Of a stretch of DNA of 64,000 nt, positions 1-38,521 are shown piece by piece. The notes under the pieces are model-generated. The model made no database searches, was not told the DNA's origin, and worked only from the letters and a program-made list of their open reading frames with translations. This DNA is from Pecten maximus (taxonomy: Eukaryota), in assembly GCF_902652985.1 (NCBI RefSeq), contig NC_047019.1, positions 14,382,097 through 14,446,096 of the forward strand. Direction: 5' to 3'. How positions within the stretch are numbered: the first letter of the stretch is position 1; the number at the start of each line of letters is the position of its first letter. The position numbers and the translations under genes were made by a program.

Positions 1-154
1 GTTTAGTTTCGTATCTTCAGATCCTCATTACCAACTGTCATAAAACACAAAGATAATACCACATTTTCTCAATTGCTCCGTGAATTTTTCTATTTGTGTG
101 AAATTTACTGAAAAGGAACTAGAAATCCTTTTAGGCTGAATAGTTATAACTTAC

Positions 155-3100
155 ATTTCCGACAACTCCGGCGGCGTCCGAGGAAGGTGTTGCCGTCCTG
201 GCTGTAGGTTACAGTATAGGTAAGTGTGTAGTAAGAGGAAGAACGGTAACTCTGTGTTGCCACGCTGTACACTGTCGATACGTTACCAAGATCCACCTAA
301 ACATACAAGTAATGCTATCCATTATACAAGAGTTTATATAGTTAAACGATCAGCATGGATGGTTTAACTAATATCTTAAAAGTTTTCCAATCTTGTTTCC
401 CTTAAAATCGCATTACCTCATAACATTTGAAATAACGTCACCATTTGTAAAGTCGCTTTTGACTGGCTACAAGAGCTGCGTAGTAATTCCTCCGAGGAAA
501 GAGATTTGTTACATGTTCTCATGACGTTATATCATATTTTCCTCCGAAACGTAAATACCTTATAAAAAAGTCTTATATTTTTCCCCAAACATTCTTCAAA
601 GAGGGTGAAAATGCACGTTAATCAACATATATTTTCCAATTGCTTGATAATGTTGTGATGATGCTATTTCTAAATTTTCCACAATTTATATGTTTGAATG
701 ACCGCGTGTACCTATTATATAAGACGAAGATACTCAGGAGCGTCAAACTCAAGACCTATGATCCCTAGGGTGTCGACTTGCCTCAGTGATAACAGCCTTT
801 TTTCCTTAGGTGAGTTGGTGAGTTCGAATCCCAGTCAGAGTGCAAACCGAACATTATCTCTCTTCATCATTGTGTTTTTCTCCCTTCATCATTTGTGTTT
901 CTATTCTATGTATCTAATTATTGAACACTATGGCAATTGTATGTTAAAAAAGAGTGTTGCAGATTCGACATGTACTAAAGACACACACTGTTAGCACCTC
1001 TCAGAACAAAATGATAGCTAGAACCGAAATGAATTAAACCACAACATACACATATATCGTTGTGTCTAGGACTAGTTAGTGATGATAAGGGGCCTAAAGT
1101 GTTGATCATATATAGGAGGCGAGCAGTAGATCGAATAAAATGCTTAAATCTGGATAAGTAGGTTCACAATATCCCTTATTCAAGGTTAATGTAAGTAGCA
1201 AATCCCGCGGTATTTATGTCAACAGCAGAACCCATGGTTAACCATAATGCTTACGAACAATGGTTACATCTGTTCTATTGCAACGGAGTATATAATGATT
1301 TATATGCCTGTGAACTATCAATATATTTGCTCTACAGATGAATCCTAGATAAATGTATTAGATTTCGCATTGAAGGTAACATACATGATTTTTATTAATA
1401 TATATTTGATACGCCCATACTACATGTGATACAGTATACAACATACCTGTAAGTATGACCCAGATCCATTCCCTATCCATCCCGTCTTTGAGTTCAGGCG
1501 ACCATCGTGGGCGTTGTAGGTGCTATAGGTCAAGTGAGCTGACAACTGGGCGTCGGGGATGTTTTTAACGTTCTGATCCACTCCGAATGCGCGCAGAGAA
1601 CAAACTAACCAAGTAGATATCATTATTAACACATTAAACTGAATATAAGGTTAATATCAGTAAAAGGCGTACAGGGAATAATCCGCAAATAAATGAAGTA
1701 ATATCATTATTTATACAAGGTCCGTCAAAAAACGGGAGATAACTCACTTGATTCACATCTGTCCCCGCCATATCCCTTGGGACAACTACAGGTGAATTTA
1801 TTCAGGTCATCCGTGCATGTTCCACCATGCTCACATGGGTTGTTTTTACACTGGTCCTGTTCTGAAAGAACATTTTATACTGTTTTTATTCTGGGTAAAA
1901 TTTTTGAAGTATATGAATCTTAATCAATAATAAATAACAAGATATAAAGTTAAATAATTAAACAGTTATATATAAATAACTATAGATTGTAATGATGGCA
2001 GAACTTTCAACTTCTGAATTAATAAGGTTTAATTCTATGCATCCTGTCTCTGGGATATTAGAATCAATTAAACGAGAAGATCAAACAATTCTATGGAACA
2101 GACCCCGGATGTTGATGCTGAAGGATCCGTCAGCATATTTTCCGTGAATATCGGTGGCGCGAATTTCAAAGTGGTAGGTAGCATCCACGTCGGGAGCAGT
2201 TCCGGATATCACCCCGGTTGCATTATTGAGTGTAGTGCCGGGAGGGAGGTGACCGGATACTACTTCGTACACAATACTTTGACCGTCAGGATCCTGTACG
2301 ATTATAAAGGTTACATATTAAAAATCAGAAGATGTTATAAATAACGGTCACGTAACAATTGTCTTTCATAGCAGTTGTTTTGCTCTTGGTTTGAAATGTC
2401 ACGTGACATAATGCAAGGAGTTCATACTGCATCGATTTACGTGATATTTCTACAGGATATAGAAGTAGATAATGAAGGGTTACTTACCCTCGCTTCTGCG
2501 GATACCGAGAGTGATTTCCCTGCGTTGAATGTACCCAGTGACCCATGAACAGACTGCTTTGTCCAAATAGGGGGTAGGCTCTTCACTTTCTGAAACACGA
2601 ACATCCTTAATCAAACGTGGGAAGGTATTTAGTCTATTTAATTATCATTAGGCAAAAGTTGCTTCGCCATCATAGGAATCGGAGTTAATGCAATCTCTAA
2701 AATAAAATATGGTATTCTTTCATGGGAATGTCAATGAAACTTCATCTGAAAGTTTAGTTGTTTTAAATCATACCTCGGTCGTTATTTGACGTCATCTTTA
2801 ATATCAAGCTTGAAATCTCTGAAAAGAAATTCTAGACTTTAAGTTTAAAAACAAAACAATCCATTTTCCTTCATGGCAATCCCTCCCTGATTACACAACA
2901 AATCATGCATATAATACTATAATAGAATTGGTAGTCATATCAGTATGCTTTATTGACCAACCTCGATGATTTTTCGCAGGTCCACACCGGCTATGTAGAC
3001 GGTTCCACCAGCCCCAGGCTTCAGGATAACATCTCCACTCTGGCCAGCCTGAAGAATAGTATTGTTTTCATTGGGAACTACTCTAAATAAACAAGTAACA

Positions 3101-3767
3101 GTATGCAAAACGCAAACATATGCGTTTGTGAGGCACAAGTCAATCATGCTTTCTGTGTTGTTGCCATTTCAGTAAATTATTGTTCGTGAAAAATAGATCG
3201 CAGTTGTCTGATGTTAAAGTGGTAAAACTGACATTAACATGTGTGCATCTGAAGAATACAATTTGGTATAGGTGCGAAAAATAGCCCCGTACATATTAAC
3301 TCGTACATAACCTGCATATTCACATCGATACCCATAGTGCCCCAAACTCCGAAAATATTGGTCATGAATAAGTGTGAATTACAAATTATTATATACTGTC
3401 AAATACATATGTATTTTGAAATTGCTTACTTGCAGGATTTAGAAATAAACTGACGTTAAACAGAAATACATTAAATCATGATGATGCTGTAGTTAAAACG
3501 GACCATATACAAACAGGAATTGAACAAAGAAAAAAAGGATAAAGACTTTAGCCTACCTCAAATATCAGGTCCCCGTTTGGTTCTGAAGATATGTTTACAT
3601 TTGGATAATCTATCTGGAAAAAACTGTAAAAAAAATTATATGAAAGTCGGTATAGAATACAAATATCAGGGACAAATTAGTATTTTCGATATTTAAAGTA
3701 TATTATTCCCTTACCTGGATGTAACGAGTGTTGGCAATATTACGAAAATCGCGTACATTGCCGCCAT
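155..3767 (-). CDS. Paralog A: secreted CADG(He_PIG)-EGF-discoidin domain protein, multi-exon, 3' terminal exon lies upstream of window start
   Basis: Exons on the minus strand with GT-AG boundaries: 3715-3767 (ATG plus signal peptide MAAMYAIFVILPTLVTS), 3557-3623 (..QIDYPNVNISSEPNGDLIFE), 2962-3048 (AGQSGDVILKPGAGGTVYIAGVDLRKIIE), 2488-2589 (KVKSLPPIWTKQSVHGSLGTF..), 2104-2293 (He_PIG/CADG: DPDGQSIVYEVVSGHLPPGTTLNNATGVISGTAPDVDATYHFEIRATDIHGKYADGSF), 1748-1861 (EGF: QDQCKNNPCEHGGTCTDDLNKFTCSCPKGYGGDRC), 1447-1604 (discoidin part 1: CSLRAFGVDQNVKNIPDAQLSAHLTYSTYNAHDGRLNSKTGWIGNGSGSYLQ), 155-296 (discoidin part 2: VDLGNVSTVYSVATQSYRSSSYYTLTYTVTYSQDGNTF..). Exon sizes and phases match paralogs B, C and D. 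Exon 155-296 is 2 nt shorter than its counterpart in paralog C, which is a possible frameshift. Confidence 0.7.
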
Positions 3768-6002
3768 GATGGATTTCTATCTTTTTAGTTACCGGAAACT
3801 GTTCCTTTAGACCGCTATCCCGGCTCAGATTGTGTCGGATACGTTAATCAACCCATTTCAGTATCACCATGCCAACATAAATGGGTGACACAGGTTGGGG
3901 CCAAGGTTGGATCCGTACTGTTATTTGTTGTTCTAAAACCAGGCTAATCCTCGGGCGTAGTTTACGTCTACGCAATGTTTCCGAATCTACGTAACCTAAC
4001 AACGAGGCATGGAGCAATGACAAAGCTAAAAGACACGAGTACCTTCCACAGAACTTCCTTGTTCTATATTTTTCGTTCTAATTGATCTCTCTTGTCCTAA
4101 ATCTCAGACAGTAACCCAGCAACAGGCGATAGGTAAGAATAGTGTGACTAGGCGGATTGCGAATGTCAAATTCTCCCTAGAACCTTACAATGTCGTGTGT
4201 GTCACTTGTATTCGTTGTGTTCATAATAGTGTTACGTTGGTATTCATCCCGATTAATGCCACCATTGCACAGTAATTAATATGATAAAATGCACAGTTTA
4301 AATGTGATTTCCTTATCTCTGTTTACGTAAAGCTATCTATTGTCTACTGTGAATTAATTTGCTAGTCTTAACTATTATTAATGACGCATATTAACTCGAC
4401 GTCTACTGTGCTTTAAATGATCCTTTGCCCATTGGGTCTGCTTTAATAGGTTGTGATATTTGTATGTTTTATCTTTTGTTTCTATTAGTTACGTTTAAAC
4501 GTAGGTAACGTGTGAAAAAGCCTTTACAGAGTTAGGCCTTTTTTTATTTTTTTATTTTTAAGAAACCCCAAAAAACAAAGAAAAAAACAATAGTGAATAT
4601 ATCGTAAAACCAAACACTAATTATAACTCAAAAACATTAACTGATGGAAAAATATGAACGAAGAATAGAAAAATTTAGAAAGTTGTCCCTGATGATTATG
4701 TTGTAAGTAAAGGTCAAGGAAACCGGCTGATGATAAAGAAAATGTAATGTCTTTGGTTTCAAGTCCTAAAGAGCATATCCTCAGCTAGGTCAATAAAGTG
4801 TTTGCTATCAAAAACAACACATCGACAGCATACACAAAAGTGAAACTGAATGACTTTGCAAGGTCTACGCTACCTTTAGCCATAGCTATTCTTGCCAAAC
4901 GTTAAGATGATGTAAATATGACGCTTGTTTTGTCTAAAGAATACCTGATAACTGCTTGCATCTAATTTAGATGTAATTCGTGAGAAGTTTCTATATTTAC
5001 TCAATCATAGTTGAATATCATTTCGCCATCGGTTCTTGCTCCCGCCCTTGATTTGTATAAGAAACTTTGCCATAATTTAATATCAGTTTACCATCGGTCC
5101 TTTCTGCCGCCCATGAAATACGAAACTTACGAAACTTCCCTACTTCGATCTCAAGCGATCCTAATTAGGTCATACTGATACAAAACTATTAGGCTGTTCA
5201 CTGGATGTCCTCGTGGATCATATCATGACCGAGTTAACGGCACCATCATGCATTTGTTAAAAAAAAAGAATTTCCACATAATTTACTTTGCAGATGTCTT
5301 TAATACGAATTGAGCAAGGTCTATTCATTAATATTTGAATTCATTATGTTTATCTCAAATTTTACCAGTAATGTTGACATATTAAAGTAGGAAAAGTAGC
5401 TATATATTTATTTCTATACATGAACTTTTATAGGATTGAAATTTTCTTTGCTGTTTTGTGTTATTTTTTTAGCCTTTTTCCCTTTCACTTTTATGCCGCA
5501 ACAATGTATAGTCGTGGAAATACCGTGCGTTTCGGCTAGTATAGTTGATTATGCTTCCACATATTCCACATATTTCTACTTAATCTCTCATTATGGCTAA
5601 AACACGTAGACAGAGAAAACCGCCCGTTCCAGGAACATCCTTACTTCACCACCTTTGTTCAGTGGAATTTTAATTGCCATCCTGTTATTCCTTTAACAGT
5701 TTTTATTTTGTAATTGTGTGTAACAGTCTGGGTTTATTTTGTCTATTTTGTTTCGTTCTGAAAACCACCTTAGTAAAAAAAATGTAAAATGTTTCAAGGA
5801 ACTGATGAGTCGCTATACCGCTAAACGCAGTAGACACATACAGGATATTTTATCCAGGTAAATTCGGCGGTACTGGATTTATTGACATTCCAGGTTAAAC
5901 ACTCACACTTCTCCTGTCCCGGCTGATACTCTGCCTACACAAACATGCCAGTGTAATAGTAATTACTGACATAAACTTGCTTCGAAGAACAAAAAAGCAG
6001 AA

Positions 6003-9000
6003 ATGGCTTTGATTATTGGAATTACATCCATATCTTTATGTTTAATTACATCAGCCATTGCCGGTTCTCCTGGCGAGTAAGTATTTGTTTATCTATTTTC
6101 ACTTACATTACACTCATTGATGAGCATAATTTAAATGTTGTCTCGGCGGAAGTGACGTCACAGTCTGTTTTGCTTTTATGTACAGGTACATCACATTTAA
6201 AACACAATTCTAATTTTGTGAAATTCAAAATAAAGAACACATTTAAACTGGTGACAAATTGTTGACAACACAGAAATTCGTTTAATTAGATAGTTTATAT
6301 ATATCAAAGATTTCCTTATATGTAGTTGCAATATAATAATAAAGATTCAACTTGAATATATATTTTTATTATGGAGTTATAACACACAAAAACGGAGTGA
6401 ACTCACATCATAAAGCGCTTTGCGGGTTACTTAGAGTACATGTACTTTGCTTTTGGGTTATAGCTCCGTATAACACAAACAATATTTTCACGTTAATTCT
6501 TAGATAATATATTTCTTTATTGTATTGTATGTACTATCAATTTTCTTATTTTTGATTTACTTAACCTAATTCAGGTAAAAATTTACTTTAATTGTTGGAC
6601 TCGTTTCTTTAGAAATGGTTCTACAGCTGTATCAGTCAACCAAAGGCGACGTTCACAACGTTTACGTTATTGGCTGATATCATAAGTTCTCAAGCCAATG
6701 AGCATGCTTGTTAGATATATCATAGGATAATGAATTAATTTAAGGGTCCATATTATTTTTATTGTTACTCCGTCTGTAAGTCTCTTTCACCTTTTCAATA
6801 TAATATTTCTATTATACTACAACGTGTTTGATAACACGTGACTGCTTATCCCAAACCTCACAAATATGAGATTACAGATTCATTATGACGTGGTGACGTC
6901 ACAAAGAGATATAATTTTTTCTCATATTGACTAAAAATCTGTTGCAGAAAATAATTGAACAATGAATATATGCAAAAACATTCATTACAGAAAAACAAAA
7001 TTAAAACTCAATAAAAAAATCTCTTATGAAAACTGCTGTATACATATATAGTTCATCCTTTTTGAATAAACGTGTTACTTTTATTTAGCGTTCTCCAGCT
7101 GGACTATCCAAATGTGAAAATAGCTGCCCAGAAGAATGGAACATTTTTGGGACAGGTATGATCAGATTTGAAGTAGTGAGAGTATCGACTATATGTAATA
7201 TGTACAGTTGAGAAGAGTGGAAGCATTTAGGTATCCACCCTTCATTTTCCGTTCTGCTTTCGTTTAGGGCTGCTATTAAATCTATATAAAAATCGTTAAG
7301 AGACGAGTTTCTCATATATTTATGCATAAAAACAATTATCAATATTAAAGCATTCATCATCAGTTATTATGACATATGTTGTTTTTCATGCTTAGGTTAA
7401 CACTATATTATGCACTATACAGTTTTCATCAAAATCAATACGAACAATGAAATATAAAGACATTTCGGTGTTTTAATACAAAGGTAAACAATGACAAAGC
7501 AATGCAAATAAATAATTATTGAGATTTATTTTGTACAATTATTTATGTACAGTACAGTATACCTATATTTATTAGTCGGGACAGAACGGCGACATCTACA
7601 TCCAGCCAAAACGAAACGGCTCAGGAACAGTAATGTTTGATGGCTATGATCTCCAGGAAATTATTGACGTACGTGTATTAGTTCATCAAAACTCATCCCA
7701 CCCAAATTATCTTATCAACTCGGTCATATCCCTTTAGTATAAAGATATTCATAACCACAGCTCTATTTTGTGATGTTCTGTAACCATTGATTTGACGTCA
7801 TATATACCGTACTAATTGCGAATACGTAACACATTTAAATAGCTTCACTATAAAGTGTATAAAATATTGATACTGAATATAGACATATATGTCAACCTAC
7901 GTCTACATACCATCTACTACCAACTTGAAACCAAAAAAGGACGTTAAACAAAATAAACAAAACCAAAAGTAGTCGTAGTAAAATAGAACTTCATGCGTAT
8001 GTAACAATTAGTAAAAAATTATGTGTGAGGTTTTGGTGACTTTACGGCGGCATCGGAAGACCAGAAAACGCATGCTAGAATGTCATTCAAATCGGCTGTT
8101 AAATTCACTTGAATCAAATGAGTACAAACTTATATAAATTGATTCGAAAACAGTAAAAGTTTACTAGGTGTTTATAGATGAAACTATCCATTGCTTGTTA
8201 TAGATCATCAACAATATGCCTCCAATATGGCGTCTACATGGACATGTCGGCTACTCGGGGACGTTTGAGGGTGGCTCGGGCATAGCGATTCCTCTGGAAG
8301 TGTTGGTAATCATTGATTTTCACTTCAACAGAAACCATTACCCTATCGTGAAAATTAAAAAGGGAATCTTAATAACTCAGTTTATCTTTCCTTCATGTAG
8401 GCTCTCTTCTTTTGGGTTAGGTTTGGGGTTTGGGTTCAGTTGTGATAAATTCTTCGAACAATGGAGAGAGCGTTTTATTGTGGATTTCTTAAAACATTGG
8501 CACTGCTTTAAACTTTTTATAATTTTACAGGACCCCGAAAGTCAGGACGTTCGCTTTGAACTTGTTGCTGGAGATTTTCCTACCGGTCTAAGTATAGTGA
8601 AAAATCCCTGGAGAATTCAAGGTATTGTCCCGGATGAAGACGCCATTTTCACGTTCACCATCCGGGCACTTGACACAAGTGATAAGTACGCCGATGCAGT
8701 TTTCAAGATAGAAACACTAGGTATTTAGACGTGATCATAACTGTTTTATTTACATAATGGCGTATTTATAAAAAAAAAACCTACAAGGAGGAAAAATGCA
8801 CGCCAATATTTGTACATATATGAGAATTATGATGCCTATTACTTTGAGATATAGATTAATATATTTGTTGTTCAACTATTTCTTAACATGTGTTCTTAAT
8901 ATGTTGATGATGTTGATACAGAGGTAGACCAGTGTGTCCGTGAAATGTGCCACAACAATGGACAATGTAATAATACCAACACTCTTCGTGGGTTTACCTG

Positions 9001-15500: not shown

Positions 15501-16735
15501 GTAGACAGTGCCGTTACCGGTAGGTTTCATAATGATATTTCCGCCCTGTGGACCTGCCTACATGATTATAAACAAAAAGGAATAAATTGTCCAGCTGAAT
15601 ATCAATTTGTTACAAAACATATTAAACATAGTCATGCATGTGTGCTAGAGTACTGCTTCACTTACTGTTTATAACGTTATTATTAATGCCTTCCTTTAAT
15701 ATGCTATGATTAAAACTTTTAAAAACAGTTATCGGTAAACAAAGACGTCACTTCCGGTATATATGTAAAAGGATGTAGACTTTCGGTTGAAAGAACGTAA
15801 TTAAATATTCAAGTAAGAAAGACATTGTCAGTTAATAAGCAAAATCTCGCGAATCATTAAAATAATAATGGAAGATTTTGTTTTAAAAAACAGTATGTAA
15901 TTGAAGAGAAAATTGATGCTCGTTTACTTGTACATATTGTTTATATTGACAACTATAGTAATGGTGAGGTGTACACCTACCTCCACAGTTAGGTTACCAC
16001 CGGTCTCAGCCGTAACCAATACATTTGGGTACTGTATCTCGAAAAAACTTCAAAACAAGAGTGAGTATGCAAATATATAAACATAAAACAACCAAACAAA
16101 ACAGTACAAAAACAACAACAAAAAACAAAATTGCGAAATACCAAATGCGTATACCTAGTATATTCATTCTATATATACCTACTAGGGATTTATAGATAGT
16201 TCTGTATTTCTAACTTCGGGAAATCCATGAAAGTCCAAATAAAAACACCTGTTTTCGCTCCATCCATCAATAATAAGTCATAACTAGTTTAATTTGTAAT
16301 GTAAACAGAAACTAACATCTTTTCAAAAGTTGTCATTTATGTCAATATAAAAAAAAATCAAATAGAAAATAAAAAGTCCATTTTTCAGTCATACATGAGT
16401 ATCGCCATTTTATATTAATATGGGACAATGGTAAACCTGACAATTGAGAGCAGAAATACTGGTAAAAGTATGTCCAACTATACCAGTTATAGGTGGCATG
16501 GAATGCTATATCAATATACAAGAGCGCATATATAGTCAACGATAATATATTTTCTTCAGCAGAATTTAATTAATTTCGCTTAAATATACCTTTCATGGAT
16601 ACCCAATGATATTTTTGTTGAACAATTCATTACACAGATATCCTGATAAATAAACAAAACAAAAATAATGAATTACCTTGCTAACGAGTAAGGCAGGAAG
16701 AACAGGAGAAGGTACGTTGTTTTGATGGCCGCCAT
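12557..16735 (-). CDS. Paralog C: secreted CADG(He_PIG)-EGF-discoidin domain protein; 9 exons; an apparent 1-bp insertion/frameshift in exon 13420-13578 makes it a possible pseudogene
   Basis: Minus-strand exons: 16677-16735 (MAAIKTTYLLLFFLPYSLA, signal peptide), 15981-16047 (SFFEIQYPNVLVTAETGGNLTVE), 15468-15557 (AGPQGGNIIMKPTGNGTVYIGKTDILKLFE), 15093-15194 (IVNSMPPVWELKSVHGSLGTFLGGASIALNLEAV), 14598-14787 (He_PIG: DPEGGALKYEKVSGALPPGVVLNKATGQISGTAPDVDATYQFGIRVTDKHGKYADQIFSIDTR), 13884-13997 (EGF: KNQCLSNPCSHGGTCVDDIDSFVCTCRQPYGGTTCA), 13420-13578 (discoidin part 1: DCESHAFGVDQRTKTISDAQMSAHYSYG then frame shifts to TIPASDGRLNAPQGWIGQNTASWLQ), 12947-13090 (VDLGDIMDVHAIATQGYTSSTYYTSEYQLQYSSDGNAFVNTKNGTANM), 12557-12700 (VYSGSTSVNTVTKHVLTPPLHARFIRFKPVTYSSHPGMRVEDLRMRD, stop). 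Confidence 0.75.
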
Positions 16736-18506
16736 TTTGTTTAGAGATGATGAGTTGCGCTGGAAGCCTAGAATGAGGTTCCCGGCTAACACCTGCTGAA
16801 ATGTTTCGTTGACACAGACATTAGGTTATGCCACGTGACTTTTGTGATTACCGGGTACAATGAGAAATATCTCGTCAATACCTTAGTAGATACCGTACGA
16901 CAAAACATTTTATTGCCTTCAAATATAGTTTTGTAATAAAATAACTTATAATCTTTTAAGCATGTATTTGCAACAACCACAAAAAAGGAAAAAAACTTTT
17001 AAAAAGCAAATAAGGATTTTCAAACTTTTTCAATATATTATTTCCTCAAACAGTATTTCTTTGTTAAAACCGGCAGCGCAACTTACAGCAGGTTTGTATC
17101 AGATATCTATTTTTACTTCATGCATAATTTTTACACAATATCAATCAATGTATAATTGTTTTGTTTCTTTATTTTGTGTAGGATTCAGATGAAGCTACCA
17201 TGGCTGTTTTGTAGTCGAATTCATTTTGTTTTTTATCAACTCAACTTTTCCACCCAAACAATGACCTTGTATGTATATATATATATATGTAACACGTGCA
17301 GCCGGGGTTACTTTTCACAGAGATACTAGTATTTCTACATGTGTTCATGTCTAGATTAATGCTTCTAATTTCGCGCAGTCAGATTCCACAGATGTGTGTT
17401 TTTGCGTATCTGGAGAAATCCCGACGGTAAACAACACTGATACTGACTCGTAGACGTGACAGATTATAATTAAACCCTTTAATGGGTGAATATCCCCGTT
17501 TCCAGACACTATAAGAAATTGGGTCAGGTCATTCGGAATATGTCAAAGGATGACTTGTCAATTAACGTGCAACCACTGCAACTGGAACATGCGTGATGTC
17601 ATTCTTCTAGATAAGATAAAATTGTCATTTTAACACAGTCTTGGGCTTATATGGCATTTCATCTCCCTCCCAATATATAAATAGGAAAAATATAATGTAT
17701 ATATAATATTTTTGAAAAATTTATTTAATTTCAATAAATTTTACTAATTAGAAAAACCTCATGTCCTTTAGTGGTTCTCCCCATCCAATACAACAATGTC
17801 ATAGGATGTTTTTGAAAGTACAGATGTTTTCAGATATGGAACATGAAATTTGAAATTTGAAGCAAGGAAACTTTTTAAAGAAAATAACATTTAGTATTAT
17901 ACATTTATGTTGTTTTGTTTCTACGATATATATAATTACGGGTCAAAATCATTGGACAATTTACAAATGTATTGCTTTGTCTGAAAACTTTTATCGAATG
18001 ACTAAATGTTCTGTATCGACACTAATAATTCACCTCGTCAGGCCAATTAGTTAAAATACTACTGGAACAGAGATAACAACAAATGACAAAAGATAATAAC
18101 AATAGCTGCCTGGATGGTTATTCATTTGTCAATTAAACAGAATCGGAACCATTAAATAAAATAATACAAACGAAAGAACCGTCTGTCAATGACATCAGCT
18201 TTCCATTACCATCTAAAATAGAACTACAAAAGCAGTTTTTATAAAAAACGAAGCTTAACGATATAGCTTCACAGAAGTGAGCTACTAGTATTTCTTTTCA
18301 TTGATTTTTTTCAATTTTTGAGATATTTGATTAAAAAAGATGGAAAAACAAGCATAATATATCAGACATATTTATCTACAATCAGGCTGTAATAGAAGAA
18401 ATAGGAAGTAGTTGTGTATGGGAGGCCAAACGAGAGCTCCCTAGTGATTGTGGTATCTCAGTCCATCCTCGGGGGATCACTAAACTAGATGCGAGTGTAA
18501 AACAAG

Positions 18507-20883
18507 ATGGCGAACGTGTACAACCTGTTTTCGGCTTTGATGCTGGCGATCCTTCTGATGCCACAGACTGTTTCGGCCGCTACTGAAGAGTATGTAAGTT
18601 TTTACAGTAAAATGGCCAGAATATACGCAAAATATGTCAGTTCATGTAATTATGTGAACGCGAAGTGAGGTTATTAATCTTAAGGAAATAATTCAAAGAT
18701 GCCACATCTTTGACAAAAAAATAATTATGAGATTCATGCAGTGCCAAAAGCTATATAAGCTGTATAATATATTCATACCGTCCTCCAAAATTTCAATTTT
18801 TTTCCTTATTTTGTATTATTTCATTTATTGCATCCTCAAAATATGGTAGATTGTGTTCCGCTTCTATATTTGGTATATGCATCATCGCTTTCGTTCGTCT
18901 AAGCGATCACTTTTTTATTCCTTCATTTCTTATGTTCTTTTCCTTTTATTCATTTCTATGCCATTGGTGATATTTTACGCATTTTTGTCACGGGCAGTGT
19001 GCAGGCTGTCAAACGCTGAATATTTGTTAATTGTTATGTATTTGGTACAGCTGTCACAATGATAAAGATATGGGAAACATGGTGATGCAAAATGGATATT
19101 GATCAGCTGCAATGCATCATCAAAAGCAGTTTAAGCTTTTTGTTGTTGTTTTTATTCGTAAAATGATTTTCATTTACTTCAATCCAAAATGATAACATAA
19201 ACATAAGCATATGTCTAAAAAGTGATATCATTTTACAGTCCTTTACAAGTGGATTATCCAAGTGTCATTGTCCACGCTAAAGACAATGGAAACTTCACTA
19301 TGATGGTAAGCAAGGTTCTAACATACAGTGTGTTTTAAAACTCAGCTCTATCTGTAAAATGAATTCCCATGCTATTCATGCATCTGTTTCTGATTTGAAT
19401 ATACTTTTGTAATGCATTATTATACACTAGTATTTTCAATGGATCAGTTCTAACTTCTCACTACATTACAATGGTAAGCAATAAAAGAAAATTTAATCCA
19501 TTCCATTTGTGTTTTGAATAACATATTTATGTATCGTCATGCAGGAATTTTTCATTCAACATTTTGTTATTCTTAAACATTTATAAAGTCATAGTATCCC
19601 TATTTTATTCGTATTCATGCTTATTCCATCCCGCTTGTTTTTGTCTGTTTAAGTCTGGAATCAATGGCGACATAAAACTGTTGCCCGGCGTCAACAACTC
19701 CGGAAAGGTGTACTTTGAGGGAGAGGATTTACTTTATCTCATCGAAGTAAGACCTTACAAAAATGTGATATATTATATTATGTAGCAATAATTTGAATTA
19801 CATTTCCATGGTAATTAGGGTGAATAGTTCATTTTTTGTAATGGACTCTATGCTCGCTCTCATTCTCTCTTTCTCCCATTCACCAATATCTATCCATTTT
19901 CTATGCAGGTCATACTGAGCCAGCCCCCTGTATGGTCAGAATATTCACCGTTCGGACACCTCGGAGATTTCCATGGAGGCGAGAGGGTGTACGTCCAATT
20001 GGAAGCACTGGTACATGTATTTCCTAACTCATGATATTTCATTATTTTATTAATATTTACTTACGTCCATGGTCAATGTATGTCATAATTCAATCTTCCC
20101 AAATACGAATCACAAATTATGAACCATTATCTCAAGGTTTTTTATTTGGGAGGCTGTGGTATGTTTGTGTTAAGTCTCCTTGTGATAGGCCGGATCTTTT
20201 GCCGATTTAGAGTGCTACCTCACTGAAGCATACTGCCGAAGACACCCAGCATCACACCCCACCCGGTCACATTATACTGACAACGGGCGAACCAGTCGTC
20301 CCACTCCTAATTTGCTAAGAGCTAAGCAGGAGCAGCAACTACCATTTTTAAAGACTCTGGTATGTCTCGGCCAGGGGACAGAACCCAAAGCCTTCCTCAC
20401 AGGGGCGAACGCTCAACTAAAGGCCAAAAGTGAGGGAGTGTCAAGGGAGACATTAGGAAGAAGAAAGTTGTTAAGAAAGAAGAGAAAAGATAAGATCCCA
20501 AGTTGAGTCGCCTCTTACGATCATGCAATGGGGGCAGCAGGTACAATTCTTACGCCCTACCTGCAGGGCCACCTCCCAAATACGTATCACAAATTATGAA
20601 CCATTTTCTCAAGGTTGGTAAGAGTATACGAAGATGGAGTTTGATGTAGACAACACGCAGTCAACAGTTTACATGTAATGCTTCATATTGTTATTTCATC
20701 GCTACAAACGACAAGTAAATGTTCATTAATATGTCATGATAACAAGAATACCAAGAAATCGACAAGTCTATTCGTCCATGATGCATTCACTTCCACCTAC
20801 AAAATAATCAACGATATGTGAGTCACATGTAACCATAGAAACCCTTTATTCAGTTCCTAGGTACTCGATAAAAATGACAAGAG

Positions 20884-20918
<35 letters not shown>

Positions 20919-23900
20919 TTCCCCCTAGCATTGTAAACACATAAGTGATATCTGCTTGAAATGTAGGCGGAACAACCTGTCGATTTGATGGTGATCCTGT
21001 ACACTTTACACCTTGATTTTTACCTTTCCGCGGAATACTCGCTTTTTTATATATGTATCTCTTGATTTATTTGATATGTATGTTAATTGTCCTTATATCA
21101 TCAATGTGTTTAGGATCCAGAAGGAGGTCATGTGACGTATTCTGTGGTAGCTGGTGATCTTCCTCCGGGGATAACACTTGATCCGTCTTTAGGTGAAGTA
21201 AAAGGTTTGGCTCCAGATGCTGACACGACATACACCTTCACCGTGCGCGCTACTGATTCACATGGCAAATACTCCGATAACGTACTGCAGATGAAGGTTA
21301 GAGGTGAGCAAAAACAGAGGTTTCCGACATGGAAACGAAACCGTAGTTCCATTACAAAACGAGATGAAAATACGAACGAAAACATATATATATGCATTGA
21401 CACCCTTGAAAAAGCGGAGGGAGAATAGGACCTTGCGTTTCGGATGGGGGGGGGGGGGAGTCTCTCGCTCCATCGACGATATTCGACATGGAAATAAAGG
21501 TCAAATCCGGGTTTTAAGTATATAACATACAATATGACTTCCCAATACAACAAGAATTCAGTGCAGTTGGTTTAATGAATTCAGATCTATAATTTTATCA
21601 TTGATTTTTTTTTAATTTCTAGGTGGCCATTTCTCTGTATCTTACCAATTACTGTATTTTAATATCTAGGTGACTATTTGCAGCTACCAGTATCGTCAAC
21701 AAAAGGTTGACGATACTTTAAACCTACTAATGGGGAGGAAAAATTCACCAACTCAAAAGGTCTTCCTATTCTATTGGACATGGAAGGCCACGACACGCAC
21801 CATATTTGAAACATAATATCGGTTATCATTACATAACAAAGCCTTTCCAGAAAGTTATCATTATCAACTGTTTCCCTTACTAAAGAGAGTATATTTCAAA
21901 CTACTGAATATGGCAGAATAAACTATCAAAATATAATAAGTTAGAGACTATTGCAAATTTCTTTCATTTCAATGTTCATTTCAATACAATACATGCAATC
22001 AATGTAGCGTTCGTAGTTGATACACGGCGCTGTTTCACAACAAAACATTTTCCTTCTTATCAAGGCGGACAAGTCATGTTATTAATTAATCTGATGAAAA
22101 TTCGTATTTTTATAAGTTTTTTTCGAATTGAATCTGTGTTAAAAGCCTTCATTATTACACTGGAATATAATTTGATTTTTCCTGAAATCCTTCTTTTGTT
22201 TGCACACTTTTGCTATTGGCATCACTCTGGTGAGTCCTCGAAGGACGAAACAGTTGTATGATGTCCTTACATCACTGGCGAGTCATATAGAAGGACGAAA
22301 CAGTTGTATGATATCCCTTACATCACTATCGAGTCCTAGAAGGACGAAACAATTGCATGGTGTCCTTAACATCACTGGCGAGTCATAGAAGGGCTTAGCA
22401 GATGTATAATGTCCCTAACGTCACTGGCGAGTCCTAGAAGGATGAAACAGCTGTTTGATGTCCACAAATATCACTAGCAAGTCATAGAAGGGCGAAACAG
22501 ATGTATTCTATAGTTTCAAAATCATTTTGTATTTATCAAATCCATGTCTTGGACAATCCTCTGTACAGTTCTTACTTTTTCCAAACTTCTCGATTGACGT
22601 GGTTTTAAATCGGTAAACATATCTACAAAGATCAACATACATCTTTTTATATAGAGTAATTTTAACTGGTTACGTTTGTAATTTTAGGTAGTAATTCGTG
22701 TACCAGTTCCACATGTCGACACGAAGGAATATGTCAGGACCACGTGGGCGATTTCTATTGTACCTGTATTCACCCGTACGGAGGCAAAACGTGCCAACAA
22801 GGTAGGTGTTTTGCTTTTTCTGTATTTACATATTTAACTGAATTTACTGACTAGAGCTCAGCAATTTGGATGAGACATCGAGAGTTCTGTGCTACACAAG
22901 AATACAAAGAAGGACATACCGCAGCCTCCCAATTAGATACATACACTCACTACGTTTATATGGCCATAGCTGTTGACATGACGTTTAACAATGCATGGAC
23001 AAACCAAAGCAATTATTGAGAAAATCAGTTAAAACTTTAAGTTTCAATTCTTGAACGCTAACAATATAAGGCTAATGTATCGATATCTATGTAATATTAG
23101 CTTTGTCTGACTCCAGACATGGCGTAAAGAATAGATGTTTAATTATGTCCTAGATTGCCGAAGCCATGGTCTAGGAGTGGACAGCCGACACAAAGTTGTG
23201 CCAGACGCCCACATGTCGGCATACAAAGTATACAGTAGCTACTTAGCCTACAATGGCCGTCTGTATGGGTCTGGATGGTATGGAATAGATAGTCAATCAT
23301 GGCTTCAGGTCGATTTGGGTAAGTATTGTATAGGTGGTACTGTATAAGAAGCATTGCATGTGTCCACGTTAGACTGGCCACCAGACCCTAAGTAACTATG
23401 TTAAGGATTACCAAGCTTTTGTAATACTAGATTATCTGCCCCTAGTTGGAAACTTAGAATCAGACATATCCTAGGGATCAAAATCATAAAGGTCAATTTT
23501 ATTTATAATTTTAATATTCTAGAGACAGTGGGCCAGTCTAGTGTCCACGTGTGTGCGAAGTAAGCTTAACATCTTCATAGTTTTACGTCCAGTAACCAGT
23601 TATCCGTACCACTATAGGAAATAGCATTGCTGTCCACACAGGGAATAATTTAGTGGTGAAGTCCGTAAAAACGTTACTGTTGAACACATCCGTCATAAAT
23701 CAAAACGTCTTCGATAGGTAAATGTGTTAAATGTTGGTCAAGATTGTCTGTCTATCATTACTGATATTTTGAGCAGCATTATAAACTGTTTTCTCTAATA
23801 GGAAACGTGACACAAATCCATGGTGTACAGATGCAGGGCTGCACCAGCTATTATTACACATCAAGGTTTAATCTGCAATTCAGCGTAGATGGTAATTCTT

Positions 23901-25336
23901 TCACTAATTATACCACAGATGGCGTCAGTCCCAAGGTAAGTGTTCATAAAGGAATGAACCCTCAGGGTCATCAAGATATGCCCTAGCCAAACATTATAAA
24001 CCACAAAATGTCCAAATTTAGGTATCTATCGGTATCTGGAGGAGTAACTACCATTTTTAGATATTGAGCCTCACTCACAATGGTCGAAAGCCCCACTTAC
24101 GGGAGGCGTTATTAGGAAGAATGAAGTTGCTAGGAGATAGTAGTTATAACACCCAGTGCCTCAGGCTATAACACCCAGTGGGTCATGTGACATTAAAAAA
24201 GGCGGGATTCTTTTTTGTTGGTTCAGTTTTTTTTCAAAGTTGACGAAAATGGTAAGACAATATAAATATAAGTATTGAACAGTGATTTTAATTTTATAGT
24301 CGATATGGCAGCAAGATGTATGGTGGGCAAATGTAGCATGGGAACGTACCCGTTGGCCCAACGGGTTCCCATGTCATTTGCCCACAATACATCTTGCTGC
24401 CATATCGACTATAACAACATTAAAACCACTGTTCATTGCTTAAATAACATAGGCATATAGTGGCAACTGCCTCTTAGCATTGTGTCAATGGGGGGAAAGC
24501 GGAACAAATGTAAATATTTACTTATGTTGGTGTGTGTGAGAGTGTGTGAAAGTGTGTGAGTATTTATTGGACGTGAATAATTGTATTCTTTGTACATGTA
24601 TTATCGATGCGCCTATGAGCCGTAAGGCTCTCGGCAAAATAAAGAATCAGAATCAGAAAAGGTTAATATCCCAAATTTAGTCGCCTCTTTCCAATCATCA
24701 CGCGATGGAGTAGCAAGTAAAATGCGTACGTCTTACCTGCACAGAGCCAACTTCATTGAAGTAAGCACCTTTTTAATCGTTCGTCTGGCCAAAAAGTTTT
24801 AAGACGTCTTCAAGAATTATGACAAAACCAGCAGCGGTCCTAAGGTCAAAACTGATAATTATTCACAACATATCATTTACGCGATAATTACCACCAAATT
24901 TTAAACTCATATAATCATTATCTTCGGAAGTACGTTGAAATGTTATACCTCTTTTTTCCCTTTATAACTTTAAAATGAGCGTAGGAATAAAAAAGAGATT
25001 TTGCGGAATTGGATTCATATAACCTTTCTTTTCTTGATTCATGTCTCATTATTTCTGATATCAAATGGATTGTATAGTGAAGCTTTAAGTTAATGAGATA
25101 AAATACGGTTTATACTAGTGAGATTTGTTAATGTATAGAAATGAAATTCCATGTAAGGTAGTAATTTACTTATTTCTAATTCGTAGGCCTTCCCTGGGTA
25201 TGGGAATGCCAACGTGTACAAGTCATCGTTGGCCCGCCCTGTTGACGCACGGTACGTCCGATTTGTGCCTACCCAGTGGAACCGCTCCTACAAACCTTGT
25301 ATGAAGGTGGAACTTCTGGGATGTTACTACTTATAA
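18507..25336 (+). CDS. Paralog D: secreted CADG(He_PIG)-EGF-discoidin domain protein, apparently complete 9-exon gene
   Basis: Exons: 18507-18589 (MANVYNLFSALMLAILLMPQTVSAATE, signal peptide), 19239-19305 (PLQVDYPSVIVHAKDNGNFTMM), 19654-19746 (SGINGDIKLLPGVNNSGKVYFEGEDLLYLIE), 19909-20010 (VILSQPPVWSEYSPFGHLGDFHGGERVYVQLEAL), 21114-21303 (He_PIG: DPEGGHVTYSVVAGDLPPGITLDPSLGEVKGLAPDADTTYTFTVRATDSHGKYSDNVLQMKVR), 22688-22801 (EGF: SNSCTSSTCRHEGICQDHVGDFYCTCIHPYGGKTCQQ), 23154-23318 (discoidin: DCRSHGLGVDSRHKVVPDAHMSAYKVYSSYLAYNGRLYGSGWYGIDSQSWLQVDLG), 23802-23935 (ETVTQIHGVQMQGCTSYYYTSRFNLQFSVDGNSFTNYTTDGVSPK), 25187-25336 (AFPGYGNANVYKSSLARPVDARYVRFVPTQWNRSYKPCMKVELLGCYYL, stop). All GT-AG, phase-consistent. 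Introns contain a retroposon copy, a C33 homopolymer and a 54-bp tandem repeat. Confidence 0.82.
20140..20574 (+). mobile_element. Roughly 530-bp non-autonomous retroposon family, copy 1 (5'-truncated), in intron of paralog D
   Basis: Shares ..GTTAAGTCTCCTTGTGATAGGCCGGA.CTTTTGCCGATTTAGAGTGCTACCTCACTGAAGCATACTGCCGAAGACACCCAGCA..CCCGGTCACATTATACTGACAACGGGCGAACCAGTCGTCCCACTCC..GTCGCCTCTTACGATCATGCAATGGGGGCAGCAGGTACAATTCTTACGCCCTACCTGCAGGGC with 10 other copies. Flanked by 42-bp near-identical direct repeats at 20098-20139 and 20575-20616. Confidence 0.7.
20886..20918. repeat. C33 homopolymer, with a G13 run at 21446-21458, flanking the He_PIG exon of paralog D
   Basis: Read directly from the sequence: GAGAAC(C)33TTCCCCC, and GGAT(G)13AGTC about 140 bp after the exon. 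Confidence 0.9.
22222..22505. repeat. Minisatellite, period about 50-54 bp, about 5.5 copies, in intron of paralog D
   Basis: Unit CATCACTGGCGAGTC(C/A)TAGAAGGACGAAACAGTTGTATGATGTCC(C)TTA repeated with point changes. Confidence 0.7.
24296..24413. repeat. Near-perfect palindrome about 118 bp, in intron of paralog D
   Basis: TCGATATGGCAGCAAGATGTA..GGGCAAATG..CATGGGAACG..CCCGTTGG|CCCAACGGG..CCCATG..ATTTGCCC..TACATCTTGCTGCCATATCGA. Confidence 0.75.
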
Positions 25337-25477
25337 CTTAAATCTTTGAATGTGCTTATGTTTCGACAATAAAAATACGTTTTCTTGTATTTATTGATTA
25401 CTTGTCCTTTAAGGTACGCCTTCTGTAGTTAGACCCCTTCCCTATTTTTCTCAGTGTCATTTAGCCCGAGTTTCCTC

Positions 25478-25543
25478 TGGCCCTGACACCATGTCTGGTG
25501 TAGGGCCCCTACACCAGACATGGTGTCAGGGCCAGAGGAAAAT
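25478..25543. repeat. Perfect 66-bp palindrome just downstream of the paralog D stop codon
   Basis: CCTCTGGCCCTGACACCATGTCTGGTGTAGGGCCCCTACACCAGACATGGTGTCAGGGCCAGAGG. Confidence 0.8.
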
Positions 25544-38449: not shown

Positions 38450-38521
38450 GGTTCTGTGGTGTAGTGGTTATCACGTCTGCTTTACACGCAGAAGGTCGCG
38501 AGTTCGAACCTCGCCAGAACC
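38450..38521 (+). tRNA. tRNA-Val (anticodon TAC)
   Basis: 72 nt: GGTTCTGTGGTGTAGTGGTTATCACGTCTGCTTTACACGCAGAAGGTCGCGAGTTCGAACCTCGCCAGAACC. Cloverleaf is foldable, box A TGGTGTAGTGG, box B GGTTCGAACC, anticodon loop TTTACAC, followed by a T5 Pol III terminator. Confidence 0.9.

Follow-up and report, generated by a model that had tools for sequence, protein, structure and literature searches.

The four genes found between positions 155 and 25336 of the window, by which the whole analysed stretch of 64,000 nucleotides from Pecten maximus is meant, probably belong to an old tandem cluster that is mollusc-wide, comprises five paralogs (A to E) and divides into two subfamilies by the position of intron 7. 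The same confidence attaches to the history and mechanism proposed below and to the view that the copies are not decaying. An exon-by-exon rebuild placed the paralogs in the order A(-), B(+), C(-), D(+), where a four-gene cluster had been claimed, with GT-AG boundaries at every intron (Table 1). The limits of the cluster are the end of A exon 8 (155) and the stop codon of D (25336); exon 9 of A is outside the window, to the left of position 1. The B and D models (363 and 365 aa) match RefSeq LOC117328544 and LOC117328546 of P. maximus, respectively, with 100% identity and 100% coverage, and the translation of A is 100% identical to XP_033740047.1 up to "DGNTF" in exon 8. All four genes follow one nine-exon plan with intron phases 2, 0, 0, 0, 1, 1, x and 0, where x denotes intron 7. 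Their exons had been described as equal in size. This holds for exons 2, 4 and 5 (67, 102 and 190 nt in A to D) but is a slight overstatement for exons 3 (87–93 nt), 6 (114–120 nt), 7 (158–168 nt), 8 (134–144 nt) and 9 (141–150 nt), which are similar and differ among the genes. Intron 4 of D carries a young interspersed repeat that is no member of the discoidin gene family; other copies, 93–96% identical, lie at 42875-43300, 61053-61470, 62126-62550(-) and 51394-51702(-).

Table 1. Positions of the genes and associated features in the window. A slash within a sequence marks a splice site.
Feature	Position	Strand	Remarks
Gene A	155..3767	-	A/C-type; RefSeq XP_033740047.1 "lactadherin-like"; exons 1-8 in window
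Gene A exons	3715-3767, 3557-3623, 2962-3048, 2488-2589, 2104-2293, 1748-1861, 1447-1604, 155-296	-	introns GT-AG
1-nt insertion in A exon 8	173..188	-	relative to the reading frame of the orthologs
Intron-7 donor of A, ancestral type	1445..1449	-	CAG/GT right after WLQ/YLQ, phase 0
A/B head-to-head intergenic region	3768..6002	.	2,235 bp between ATGs at 3767(-) and 6003(+)
Gene B	6003..10934	+	B/D/E-type; RefSeq LOC117328544; intact, 363 aa
Gene B exons	6003-6076, 7089-7155, 7576-7668, 8204-8305, 8531-8720, 8922-9041, 9673-9840, 10243-10379, 10794-10934	+	
Intron-7 donor of B, derived	9831..9842	+	GTGGATCTGG/GT, phase 1, 10 nt beyond WLQ codons
Gene C	12550..16735	-	A/C-type; frame broken by two 1-nt insertions in assembly
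Gene C exons	16677-16735, 15981-16047, 15468-15557, 15093-15194, 14598-14787, 13884-13997, 13420-13578, 12947-13090, 12550/12557-12700	-	
C frameshift 1	13477..13495	-	exon 7, extra C in run CATCCCGG
C frameshift 2	12550..12583	-	exon 9, extra base in GTGGAAG(A)TTTAC
Intron-7 donor of C, ancestral type	13418-13422	-	matches A site
C/D head-to-head intergenic region	16736..18506	.	1,771 bp between ATGs at 16735(-) and 18507(+)
Gene D	18507..25336	+	B/D/E-type; RefSeq LOC117328546; intact, 365 aa
Gene D exons	18507-18589, 19239-19305, 19654-19746, 19909-20010, 21114-21303, 22688-22801, 23154-23318, 23802-23935, 25187-25336	+	
Intron-7 donor of D, derived	23309..23320	+	GTCGATTTGG/GT, phase 1
Young interspersed repeat, ~425 bp	20145..20569	+	inserted in D intron 4

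Donor and acceptor sites of intron 7 were determined for 19 mollusc genes (the four in the window and 15 from other species) and for three outgroup genes. In A (CAG/GTATGT) and C (CAG/GTATTA) the intron directly follows the Gln codon of WLQ in phase 0, as the first-pass annotation had it, and exon 8 opens AG/GTG GAT or AG/GTT GAT (VDLG). Exon 7 of B and D extends 10 nt beyond this site, with the donors GTGGATCTGG/GTAAAT and GTCGATTTGG/GTAAGT, respectively, so that the intron interrupts the Gly codon after its first base (phase 1). The later position and the phase had been recognised, but the offset amounts to three codons and one nucleotide rather than four codons. The position of intron 7 coincides with the tree split between A/C-type and B/D/E-type genes in scallops, oyster, abalone and chiton, and this unrooted split was found in 99% of the neighbour-joining (NJ) bootstraps. 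Both types are present in oyster, abalone and chiton. Intron 7 does mark two subfamilies, and the proposal that these had separated before the pairs were duplicated is upheld. The phase-0 site after WLQ recurs in C1 and C2 of fish lactadherin, in a discoidin gene of amphioxus and in a single domain of a coral gene; thus the A/C-type genes keep the ancestral intron 7 and the B/D/E-type genes carry a derived one 10 nt downstream. The derived intron may have arisen either by sliding or by loss and subsequent regain.

Each of the encoded proteins (~355–365 residues) comprises a signal peptide, an N-terminal module of ~55 residues, a He_PIG/CADG domain, an EGF domain and a discoidin domain. The predicted combination of CADG, EGF and discoidin is borne out by Pfam. 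F5_F8_type_C was recovered in all four proteins at 41–74 bits (cut-off 28.2), namely 41.4 for A, where the domain is truncated, 72.3 for B, 73.8 for C and 72.6 for D. EGF was likewise recovered in all four, with 33.6 bits for A, 31.6 for C, 21.9 for B (just above the cut-off) and 18.5 for D (just below). He_PIG scored 45.2, 42.0 and 40.6 bits in A, C and D (cut-off 24); Pfam gave no He_PIG match in B, whose corresponding segment nevertheless aligns with that domain in the paralogs, and none of any kind for the conserved N-terminal module. A signal peptide encoded in exon 1, 3–7 N-glycosylation sequons and the absence of a hydrophobic span after the signal peptide agree with the suggested extracellular nature, i.e. 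A to D look secreted. AF2 models are confident on the CADG, EGF and discoidin parts (mean pLDDT of D, 83.7), show a short helix at residues 76–84 and are unconfident on the N-terminal module of the monomer (pLDDT 43–58). Foldseek matched the isolated discoidin domains to CASPR2, lactadherin C2, FVIII C2, neuropilin and DDR2 with target-normalised TM-scores of ~0.77–0.86.

The best 150 matches listed from an exhaustive profile search are mostly giant repeat proteins; among the matches listed, bivalves, Haliotis and a chiton are the only sources of full-length homologs. Oysters have 1:1 orthologs of each paralog, and abalone orthologs group within clades A (87%) and D (100%). Comparison of Pecten with Ylistrum gave Ka/Ks values of 0.117 (B), 0.049 (C) and 0.090 (D). 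Because of the 1:1 orthologs across Mollusca and a Ka/Ks of 0.05–0.12, the family cannot be called lineage-specific or fast-evolving, and both of these earlier descriptions have to be given up.

In bootstrapped NJ trees, which do not resolve the deep branching among the B/D/E-type genes, B and E are sisters (86–98%), and B and D were exclusive sisters in 0/300 bootstraps. Sequence identity is 54% between A and C, 46% between B and E and 38% between B and D. An A/C-type gene stands head-to-head with a B/D/E-type gene, 0.5–3 kb apart, in all molluscs examined (chiton, abalone, oyster and scallops), and the pairs of abalone and chiton hold one gene per type. The gene order is D C B in Ylistrum, E2(+) A(-) E1(+) B(+) C(-) D(+) in Mizuhopecten and A(-) E(+) C(-) D(+) B(+) in Crassostrea virginica. 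All three share the C(-) D(+) pair with Pecten, and in oyster and Mizuhopecten the head-to-head partner of A is the fifth paralog, E. The adjacency of A and B in Pecten is a later juxtaposition, the original partner of A being E; the DNA between Pecten A and B retains no vestige of an E-type gene. We propose that an inverted duplication before the divergence of chitons would have produced a head-to-head pair of an A/C-type(-) and a B/D/E-type(+) gene, and that tandem duplication of this pair, probably before bivalves and gastropods diverged, would have given A with E and C with D. A duplication of E would have given rise to B, and the Pecten lineage would then have lost the E copy located between A and B, leaving A(-) B(+) C(-) D(+). 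C-type genes were found in bivalves only, which leaves room for a more recent pair duplication than proposed here.

The first-pass annotation had taken A/B as the ancestral pair, duplicated as a unit into C/D, in a fast-evolving, lineage-specific family with two decaying copies. The (-+)(-+) arrangement in the window is as this model expects; A groups with C and B with D, each set with its own intron position, and A and C do carry frameshifts. However, on the B/D/E side of the 99% split, B is sister to E and never exclusively to D, and B and D are less alike than A and C or B and E. Moreover, A faces E rather than B in oyster and Mizuhopecten, and the model is at odds with the oyster and abalone orthologs, the low Ka/Ks and the intact C orthologs of Ylistrum and Argopecten. 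With B and D not sisters and the family not lineage-specific, this history is already contradicted, and we consider it quite improbable. What stands of the pair duplication is its consistency with the head-to-head pairs of all molluscs examined; what falls is A/B as the original pair. A history in which the cluster grew gene by gene, through tandem duplications and local inversions in succession, and in which the (-+) pattern is coincidental or was selected later, is rather unlikely but better founded. B follows E in scallops and D in oyster, two A/C-type genes of the chiton lie in tandem on the same strand, and E1 and E2 flank A in scallops; as gene order varies among species, single-gene moves do occur. 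Aligning the intergenic DNA had been suggested as a check on the pair duplication, but the A/B and C/D regions have no similarity, so that a unit duplication is not directly visible. Against single-gene steps stand the short head-to-head spacing of the two types in every mollusc examined and the two adjacent bivalve pairs of equal relative orientation, which are the direct outcome of one two-gene tandem duplication and need more steps otherwise. The A/B and C/D intergenic regions are candidate shared promoters.

The suggested decay of two copies comes down to three insertions of 1 nt, one in A and two in C. As assembled, A exon 8 reads DGNTF-LGRRRSCRK; removal of one base gives DGNTF-SDAAGVVGN, restores phase 0 at the donor and aligns the exon with the orthologs of Argopecten (RDAAVSGGN) and Ylistrum (TNATGASGN). 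The RefSeq protein of A contains eight out-of-frame residues (LGRRRSCR) and is then back in frame. Exon 7 of C is covered by two overlapping ORFs, and removal of one C yields YGDHPASDGRLNAPQGWIG, identical to the C orthologs of Ylistrum and Argopecten. Exon 9 of C ends GMRVEDLRMRD-stop in the assembly and, one base shorter, GMRVE(V/I)YGCEINS-stop, the C-terminus of the orthologs. After both corrections C is stop-free over the full length of the intact orthologs of Ylistrum (P0011) and Argopecten (P0056). The insertions are attributed to recent lesions or assembly errors rather than long-term decay, and may be assembly errors: insertions of +1 are a typical residual error in long-read assemblies of highly heterozygous bivalves. 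That they are real, making C and perhaps also A a genuine pseudogene or null allele of P. maximus, is a possibility of some weight, albeit not the one we favour. The assembly has independent frameshifts at two sites in C and a further one in A, no RefSeq protein for Pecten C appeared among the protein-search matches, and the corrected A and C sequences were absent from a collection of 15 billion proteins. Conversely, Ka/Ks of C is the lowest of the three genes tested, C has no stop codons besides the two indels, all three lesions are of the +1 kind, and A is annotated as protein-coding.

The N-terminal module consists of three turns of ~10 residues with the pattern G-[ND]-h-x-h-x-x-G. Its HMM matches residues 20–57 of cubilin chain 6gje_B at E=0.014, an unrelated repeat protein scoring slightly better (E=0.0072), and hhalign of the module against cubilin gave 87.5% probability and P=3.6e-6. 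In cubilin this stretch forms a three-turn intertwined trimeric beta-helix that interlocks three chains (PMC6283879). On this marginal match, the mollusc module may trimerise like the cubilin N-terminus; its low pLDDT would be expected, because the fold would form only in the oligomer. No study of the function of the mollusc discoidin family was found in the literature. We suggest that the products would be secreted glycoproteins that attach to a glycan, lipid or collagen-like surface ligand through the C-terminal discoidin barrel and oligomerise through their N-terminal modules, probably into trimers. Such oligomers could act as multivalent adhesion- or lectin-like particles, and the conserved divergent gene pairs would allow partners to be co-expressed.

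Among known systems, the cubilin N-terminal beta-helix (PDB 6GJE; PMC6283879) resembles the module in its three ~10-residue G-N-h-x-h-x-x-G turns directly after the signal peptide, in a protein that is likewise extracellular and EGF-containing. The similarity is marginal, and the cubilin beta-helix precedes a long coiled coil whereas the mollusc module precedes a short helix and He_PIG; a partner like amnionless is not known for the mollusc proteins. MFG-E8 (lactadherin) and EDIL3 (Del-1) are likewise secreted, with EGF followed by F5/8 type C discoidin. The RefSeq names would make the mollusc proteins their orthologs, i.e. monomeric, opsonin-like bridges in which discoidin binds phosphatidylserine and RGD-bearing EGF domains bind integrins. 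The discoidin domain is close to the lactadherin C2 structures 2pqs and 3bn6 (target-normalised TM-score 0.80), and both C1 and C2 of fish lactadherin share with the A/C-type genes the phase-0 intron after W-[LI]-[QE]. Still, MFG-E8 and EDIL3 have two to three EGF domains and C1 plus C2, the mollusc proteins one of each together with a He_PIG domain and an N-terminal module absent from MFG-E8/EDIL3; RGD occurs in none of 45 family members searched, and a fish lactadherin-like protein is 24% identical to B over 52% of B. Such orthology is most improbable.

The nearest non-mollusc matches among those listed are amphioxus RS1-like proteins, with 35–37% identity over the discoidin domain and the phase-0 intron of the A/C-type genes. 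Retinoschisin (RS1) and these relatives are also small and secreted with a single discoidin domain, and RS1 depends on oligomerisation for its function, as is proposed for the mollusc proteins. RS1 forms disulfide-linked octamers, in contrast to the trimeric beta-helix suspected here; the RS1 domain is absent from the mollusc proteins, and He_PIG and EGF are absent from RS1. The He_PIG/CADG Ig-like domain (PF05345) is shared with dystroglycan, sarcoglycan and prokaryotic surface proteins, and many weak protein-search matches were bacterial He_PIG repeat proteins. In the mollusc proteins, unlike these, a single He_PIG lies between an oligomerisation-like module and EGF plus discoidin, an architecture of which no example was found outside molluscs among the matches listed. 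As an evolutionary analogy only, the proteins being unrelated, the collagen IV genes (COL4A1/A2, A3/A4 and A5/A6) form head-to-head pairs of two subfamilies that were multiplied by pair duplication. Their paired products co-assemble into trimers; for the mollusc paralogs, both co-assembly and co-expression are putative.

Six-frame ORF fragments from the window, whose G+C content (~29-46% per 2-kb window, mostly 32-40%) is that of AT-rich eukaryotic DNA, fell into eight groups of three to four members in an all-versus-all comparison, and the groups alternate in strand as A(-), B(+), C(-) and D(+). The AG/GT borders of the exon blocks are canonical and conserved among the four copies. Models of nine exons were assembled, including a short exon 1 located upstream in each gene, and they end at exactly the limits that the first-pass annotation had proposed for an alternating-strand cluster of four genes. 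No extra family copies or remnants of E, the fifth P. maximus paralog, were found in the other 38 kb of the window. From end to end, the models of B (363 aa) and D (365 aa) match RefSeq LOC117328544 and LOC117328546, respectively, at 100% identity, which validates the splice sites; A equals XP_033740047.1 as far as exon 8, with exon 9 left of the window. In this plan exon 1 encodes the signal peptide, exons 2-3 an N-terminal module, exons 4-5 the He_PIG domain, exon 6 the EGF domain (a classical phase 1-1 exon) and exons 7-9 the discoidin domain. The plan is common to all four genes; the further proposal of identical exon sizes holds for exons 2, 4 and 5 (67, 102 and 190 nt) and fails for the others, which vary by 3-10 nt.

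Positions in the window of the gene cluster, its lesions and the surrounding elements
Feature	Position	Strand	Detail
Gene models A-D	155-25336	alternating	total span
ORF-fragment groups	147-25333	alternating
+1 insertion, exon 8 of A	173-188	-
+1 insertion, exon 9 of C	12550-12583	-
+1 insertion, exon 7 of C	13477-13495	-
Near-perfect palindromes, 100-190 bp	9392-9527		intron 6 of B
	24266-24445		intron 8 of D
	25455-25557		just downstream of D
C33 homopolymer	20886-20918		intron 4 of D
49-bp tandem repeat, 5.7 copies	22227-22506		intron 5 of D
~425-bp interspersed repeat	20145-20569; 42875-43300; 61053-61470
	62126-62550; 51394-51702	-
Fragments of the ~425-bp repeat	42622-42768; 44412-44942; 55181-55313; 57074-57138
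tRNA-Val genes	38450-41020	+	anticodons TAC, AAC, CAC, AAC, CAC
	55830-56161	+	anticodons AAC, CAC
Repeated ORF families	38383-41343; 55817-56900
Low-complexity-repeat ORFs	53792-54778; 48250-49534	-	long; no Pfam match
Degraded non-LTR retroelement	59005-60290	-	RVT_1 fragment (Pfam E=8e-7), then two ORF pieces
162-aa ORF	61657-62142	+	QRICH1-domain match, weak (E=0.005, under cut-off)

The predicted combination of CADG (He_PIG), EGF and discoidin domains was recovered by Pfam search, with He_PIG unmatched only in B and EGF below its cut-off only in D. F5_F8_type_C (PF00754, cut-off 28.2 bits) scored 72.3 bits in B, 72.6 in D and 73.8 in frame-corrected C, and 41.4 bits in A, where the domain is cut by the window edge. 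Scores for He_PIG (PF05345, cut-off 24) were 45.2 (A), 42.0 (C) and 40.6 bits (D); B gave no match at E<=1, and its He_PIG region aligns with the paralogs in every column, with PPxW, DPE, G129 and R160 kept. EGF (PF00008, cut-off 21.5) reached 33.6 bits in A, 31.6 in C and 21.9 in B, while D lay slightly under the cut-off at 18.5. Across the 45-sequence family alignment the EGF cysteines (C183, C188, C194, C203, C205, C214), the discoidin-flanking C218 and C362, and the PPxW and DPE motifs of He_PIG are invariant. An AlphaFold2 model of D, built from the family alignment, is confident for the He_PIG, EGF and discoidin domains and unconfident for residues 26-70 (pLDDT 43-58). Its discoidin domain is modelled as the expected beta-barrel (pLDDT 85-97), with the invariant first and last cysteines, C218 and C362, closing the domain. 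Foldseek against the PDB returned discoidin matches only (CASPR2, lactadherin C2, factor V/VIII C2, neuropilin b1, DDR2), with target-normalised TM-scores of 0.77-0.86 for the isolated discoidin domains of CASPR2, lactadherin C2, FVIII C2 and DDR2, and no match informative on the N-terminal module. The proteins carry 3-7 N-glycosylation sequons and no transmembrane span. We conclude that they are secreted and possess the assigned domain folds; a transmembrane or GPI-anchored protein was rejected on the absence of a hydrophobic span.

Decay of two of the four copies, as previously suggested, is not borne out. The lesions amount to three +1 insertions, two in C and one in A. Corrected C is stop-free along the full length of the intact Ylistrum and Argopecten orthologs. 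In A, XP_033740047.1 reads ...DGNTFLGRRRSCRNFSASAS... where the genome gives ...SCRK, and the frame returns only if a base close to the exon 8 donor is dropped; the annotated A coding sequence seems to offset the genomic insertion in the wrong position, so that it carries 8 spurious, out-of-frame residues before it is back in frame. Exact look-up of the frameshift-corrected C and A proteins in the protein collection gave no transcript-derived copies. The locus does not resemble a family of pseudogenes: B, D and the scallop orthologs are intact, and the comparison of Pecten with Ylistrum gives Ka/Ks values of 0.117 (B), 0.049 (C) and 0.090 (D). As C shows the lowest ratio of the three genes tested, the insertions in A and C are attributed to very recent lesions or assembly errors, and all three sites are flagged as such, i.e. 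as probable single-base errors or fresh lesions, in the P. maximus assembly.

Copies of the ~425-bp element, one of which lies inside intron 4 of D, are 93-96% identical and thus recently active; ARAGORN detected no tRNA-like head in it. Copies of it flank the 162-aa ORF. The palindromes in and near B and D look MITE-like. Among the seven tRNA-Val genes, an AAC+CAC unit with its flanks is present three times, and it is the repetition of this unit that gives rise to the repeated ORF families. Of the two low-complexity ORFs, one is Pro/Ala/Val-rich ('APVPAVTPVPAL...') and the other has tandem 'VATHVDPAVPTTS' units; they may be genes or parts of transposable elements.

Full-length homologs with the same domain set occur in scallops (78-86% identity), in oysters, mussels, clams and the protobranch Solemya (~45-65%), and in Haliotis and the chiton Liolophura. 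The first-pass annotation had suggested a fast-evolving, lineage-specific family. With orthologs mollusc-wide and Ka/Ks at 0.05-0.12 that suggestion is unsupported, and a lineage-specific expansion is rejected. In an exhaustive profile search of 1.84 billion representatives the best 150 matches were mostly giant repeat proteins, and all single-stretch full-length hits among these 150 were from molluscs. The family is ancient and mollusc-wide and, so far as seen, restricted to molluscs. Two database entries deviate from the common domain set. The E gene of C. virginica (P0039, 495 aa; 1-5149 of the fetched locus L004) is annotated as a fusion with an upstream Peptidase_C78 gene, probably a merger of gene models, and the C. 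gigas UniProt entry K1S079 (P0063, 320 aa) has no EGF exon, which points to an exon skipped in that model.

Within P. maximus, where E (P0035) lies on the same chromosome outside the window, paralog identities are 54% for A-C, 46% for B-E, 45% for D-E, 38% for B-D and 37% for A-B. Neighbour-joining trees (Kimura distance, bootstrap) recovered the clades A, C, D and B+E, the last with 86-98% support. An abalone gene is placed inside the A clade (87%), and abalone and Solemya genes inside the D clade (100%). The division of the family into A/C-type and B/D/E-type genes is present as an unrooted split in 99% of bootstraps, in line with the proposed subfamilies; B and D as exclusive sisters appear in 0%. 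Grouping of D with A/C in a midpoint-rooted tree was discarded as a rooting artefact, as shown by counting the unrooted split.

The two subfamilies also differ in the position of intron 7, which splits the discoidin domain near WLQVDLG. In A and C, exon 7 ends at the Gln codon of (W/Y)LQ (CAG/GTATGT and CAG/GTATTA, respectively) and exon 8 begins AG/GTG GAT or AG/GTT GAT (VDLG). Exon 7 is ten bases longer in B (GTGGATCTGG/GTAAAT) and in D (GTCGATTTGG/GTAAGT), and exon 8 of both opens with the final two bases of the Gly codon. The dichotomy noted at first pass is hence retained, the exact offset being 10 nt, from phase 0 to phase 1. Donor and acceptor were additionally read in 15 mollusc genes from other genomes. 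The phase-0 site is present in all A-/C-like genes (Ylistrum C, C. virginica A and C, Mizuhopecten A, the abalone A ortholog and two chiton genes), and the +10 site in all B-/D-/E-like genes (Ylistrum B and D; C. virginica B, D and E; Mizuhopecten E1; the abalone and chiton partners). The chiton partner (356 aa; 1016-8998, minus strand, of the fetched locus L003) combines the derived +10 intron with several A/C-like residues (GWIG; C-terminal YPYMRVEVYGC) and branches near the tree base; it may be close to the ancestral B/D/E state.

Three genes served as outgroups. In a fish lactadherin-like gene, W-[LI]-[QE] is directly followed by a phase-0 intron in both discoidin domains. The same holds for an amphioxus retinoschisin-like gene and for one discoidin domain in a coral gene, the two other coral domains having no intron at that site. 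The outgroups thus set the direction of the change: the A/C position is ancestral and the +10 position a shared derived character of B/D/E, and the monophyly of the subfamily tagged in this way rests on that polarity. The shift is a rare genomic change and resolves a node that sequence trees cannot root. At first pass it had looked like intron sliding. For a true slide, VDL-G would have to be encoded by the first ten bases of the intron, unless the shift was double and compensated. Loss of the intron and a new gain close by, within a few bases, is no less plausible, and the coral domains without an intron there provide a precedent for the loss step. The clean displacement by 10 nt, with a direction that can be read from outgroups, constitutes a well-documented case for the debate on sliding versus loss-and-regain.

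The idea that a head-to-head pair was duplicated as a unit was assessed from gene order, with Mizuhopecten and Ylistrum serving as proxies for exon 9 of P. maximus A and the position of E. In Ylistrum, D, C and B are oriented towards one another as they are in Pecten; the order is E2(+) A(-) E1(+) B(+) C(-) D(+) in Mizuhopecten and A(-) E(+) C(-) D(+) B(+) in Crassostrea virginica. The A ortholog of abalone is head-to-head with a B/D/E-type gene. The chiton has an A/C-type gene in the same arrangement with a B/D/E-type partner, and a second A/C-type gene follows it. The recurring unit is thus A/C-type(-) facing B/D/E-type(+), with start codons 0.5-3 kb apart. In bivalves two such units adjoin, as expected from a tandem two-gene duplication, and in that form the central idea survives. 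A/B as the original pair does not: the original partner of A is E, with B as tandem sister of E, and the adjacency of A and B in P. maximus is secondary because no E-gene trace is left between them. The check proposed at first pass, alignment of the four loci including intergenic DNA, did not corroborate the duplication. The only detectable match was exon 5 of A against exon 5 of C (73.5% over 102 nt), indicating an event too old for DNA alignment, and no similarity is left between the A-B and C-D intergenic regions. Given this lack of intergenic similarity, and since neighbour-joining does not settle the deep B/D/E order, pair duplication stands as the most parsimonious interpretation, short of a demonstration. 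In chiton, abalone, oysters and scallops the five paralogs have remained in one tight cluster that includes head-to-head pairs, an unusually durable microsynteny that suggests shared regulation or co-assembly.

A possible basis for co-assembly is the N-terminal module. Scanned alone it matches no Pfam family. The module consists of three conserved units of ~10 residues (NGNFTMMSG, INGDIKLLPG and NNSGKVYFEG in D; NGDLIFEAG, QSGDVILKPG and AGGTVYIAG in A). Its profile matched residues 20-57 of cubilin 6gje_B weakly (hmmsearch E=0.014, an unrelated repeat protein scoring slightly better), and hhalign against the cubilin N-terminus gave 87.5% probability (P=3.6e-6); the cubilin segment compared is the beta-helix, residues ~42-80. 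The low AlphaFold2 confidence of the monomeric N-terminus would fit a fold that exists only in the oligomer. In a working model, the module would be a candidate oligomerisation domain and the discoidin barrel the likely ligand-binding head; three chains, possibly mixed, would form a particle with three such heads, and their co-expression would be favoured by the conserved divergent gene pairs. The model is weakened by the marginal profile statistics and by a structural difference: the cubilin beta-helix continues into a long interrupted coiled coil (PMC6283879), whereas in D the predicted structure gives a 9-residue helix (76-84) before He_PIG. Judged from sequence, trimerisation in general is a tentative proposal that we hold to be somewhat less probable than its opposite; if true, it would make the family a candidate multivalent lectin or adhesion system of molluscs. 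A cubilin-like triple beta-helix through which the paralogs of head-to-head pairs co-assemble as defined heterotrimers, with three discoidin heads each, is unlikely. Were it correct, the family would form mollusc-specific multivalent particles for extracellular recognition or adhesion, the duplication of its gene pairs as units would parallel that of the collagen IV pairs, and one of two chain types would be tagged by the 10-nt intron shift, a rare genomic change probably dating from the Cambrian or earlier.

Three of the four window genes already have RefSeq proteins, and RefSeq applies the names 'lactadherin-like/EDIL3'. Literature searches on He_PIG with discoidin, bivalve EDIL3/lactadherin, the locus and accession numbers, and intron sliding with discoidin returned nothing specific to the family; the sole mention, in an oyster differential-expression table that lists 'edil3', cannot be tied to it. 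As far as these searches show, the durable five-gene cluster and the 10-nt displacement between its two subfamilies likewise seem not to have been described before. MFG-E8 and EDIL3 have two or three N-terminal EGF repeats, whereas each mollusc gene has one EGF exon and its protein one EGF domain. Their discoidin domains stand in tandem (C1-C2), in contrast to the single F5_F8_type_C stretch of each mollusc protein, and their RGD integrin-binding motif, located in an EGF repeat, is absent from the mollusc family (0 of 45 sequences). On these grounds membership of the MFG-E8/EDIL3 family was rejected, and lactadherin-style bridging of phosphatidylserine and integrin appears unlikely. The RefSeq names are thus misleading and are corrected here: they hide a distinct family whose individual domains are familiar and whose architecture, an N-terminal module followed by He_PIG, one EGF and one discoidin domain, is, as far as our searches show, seemingly undescribed.
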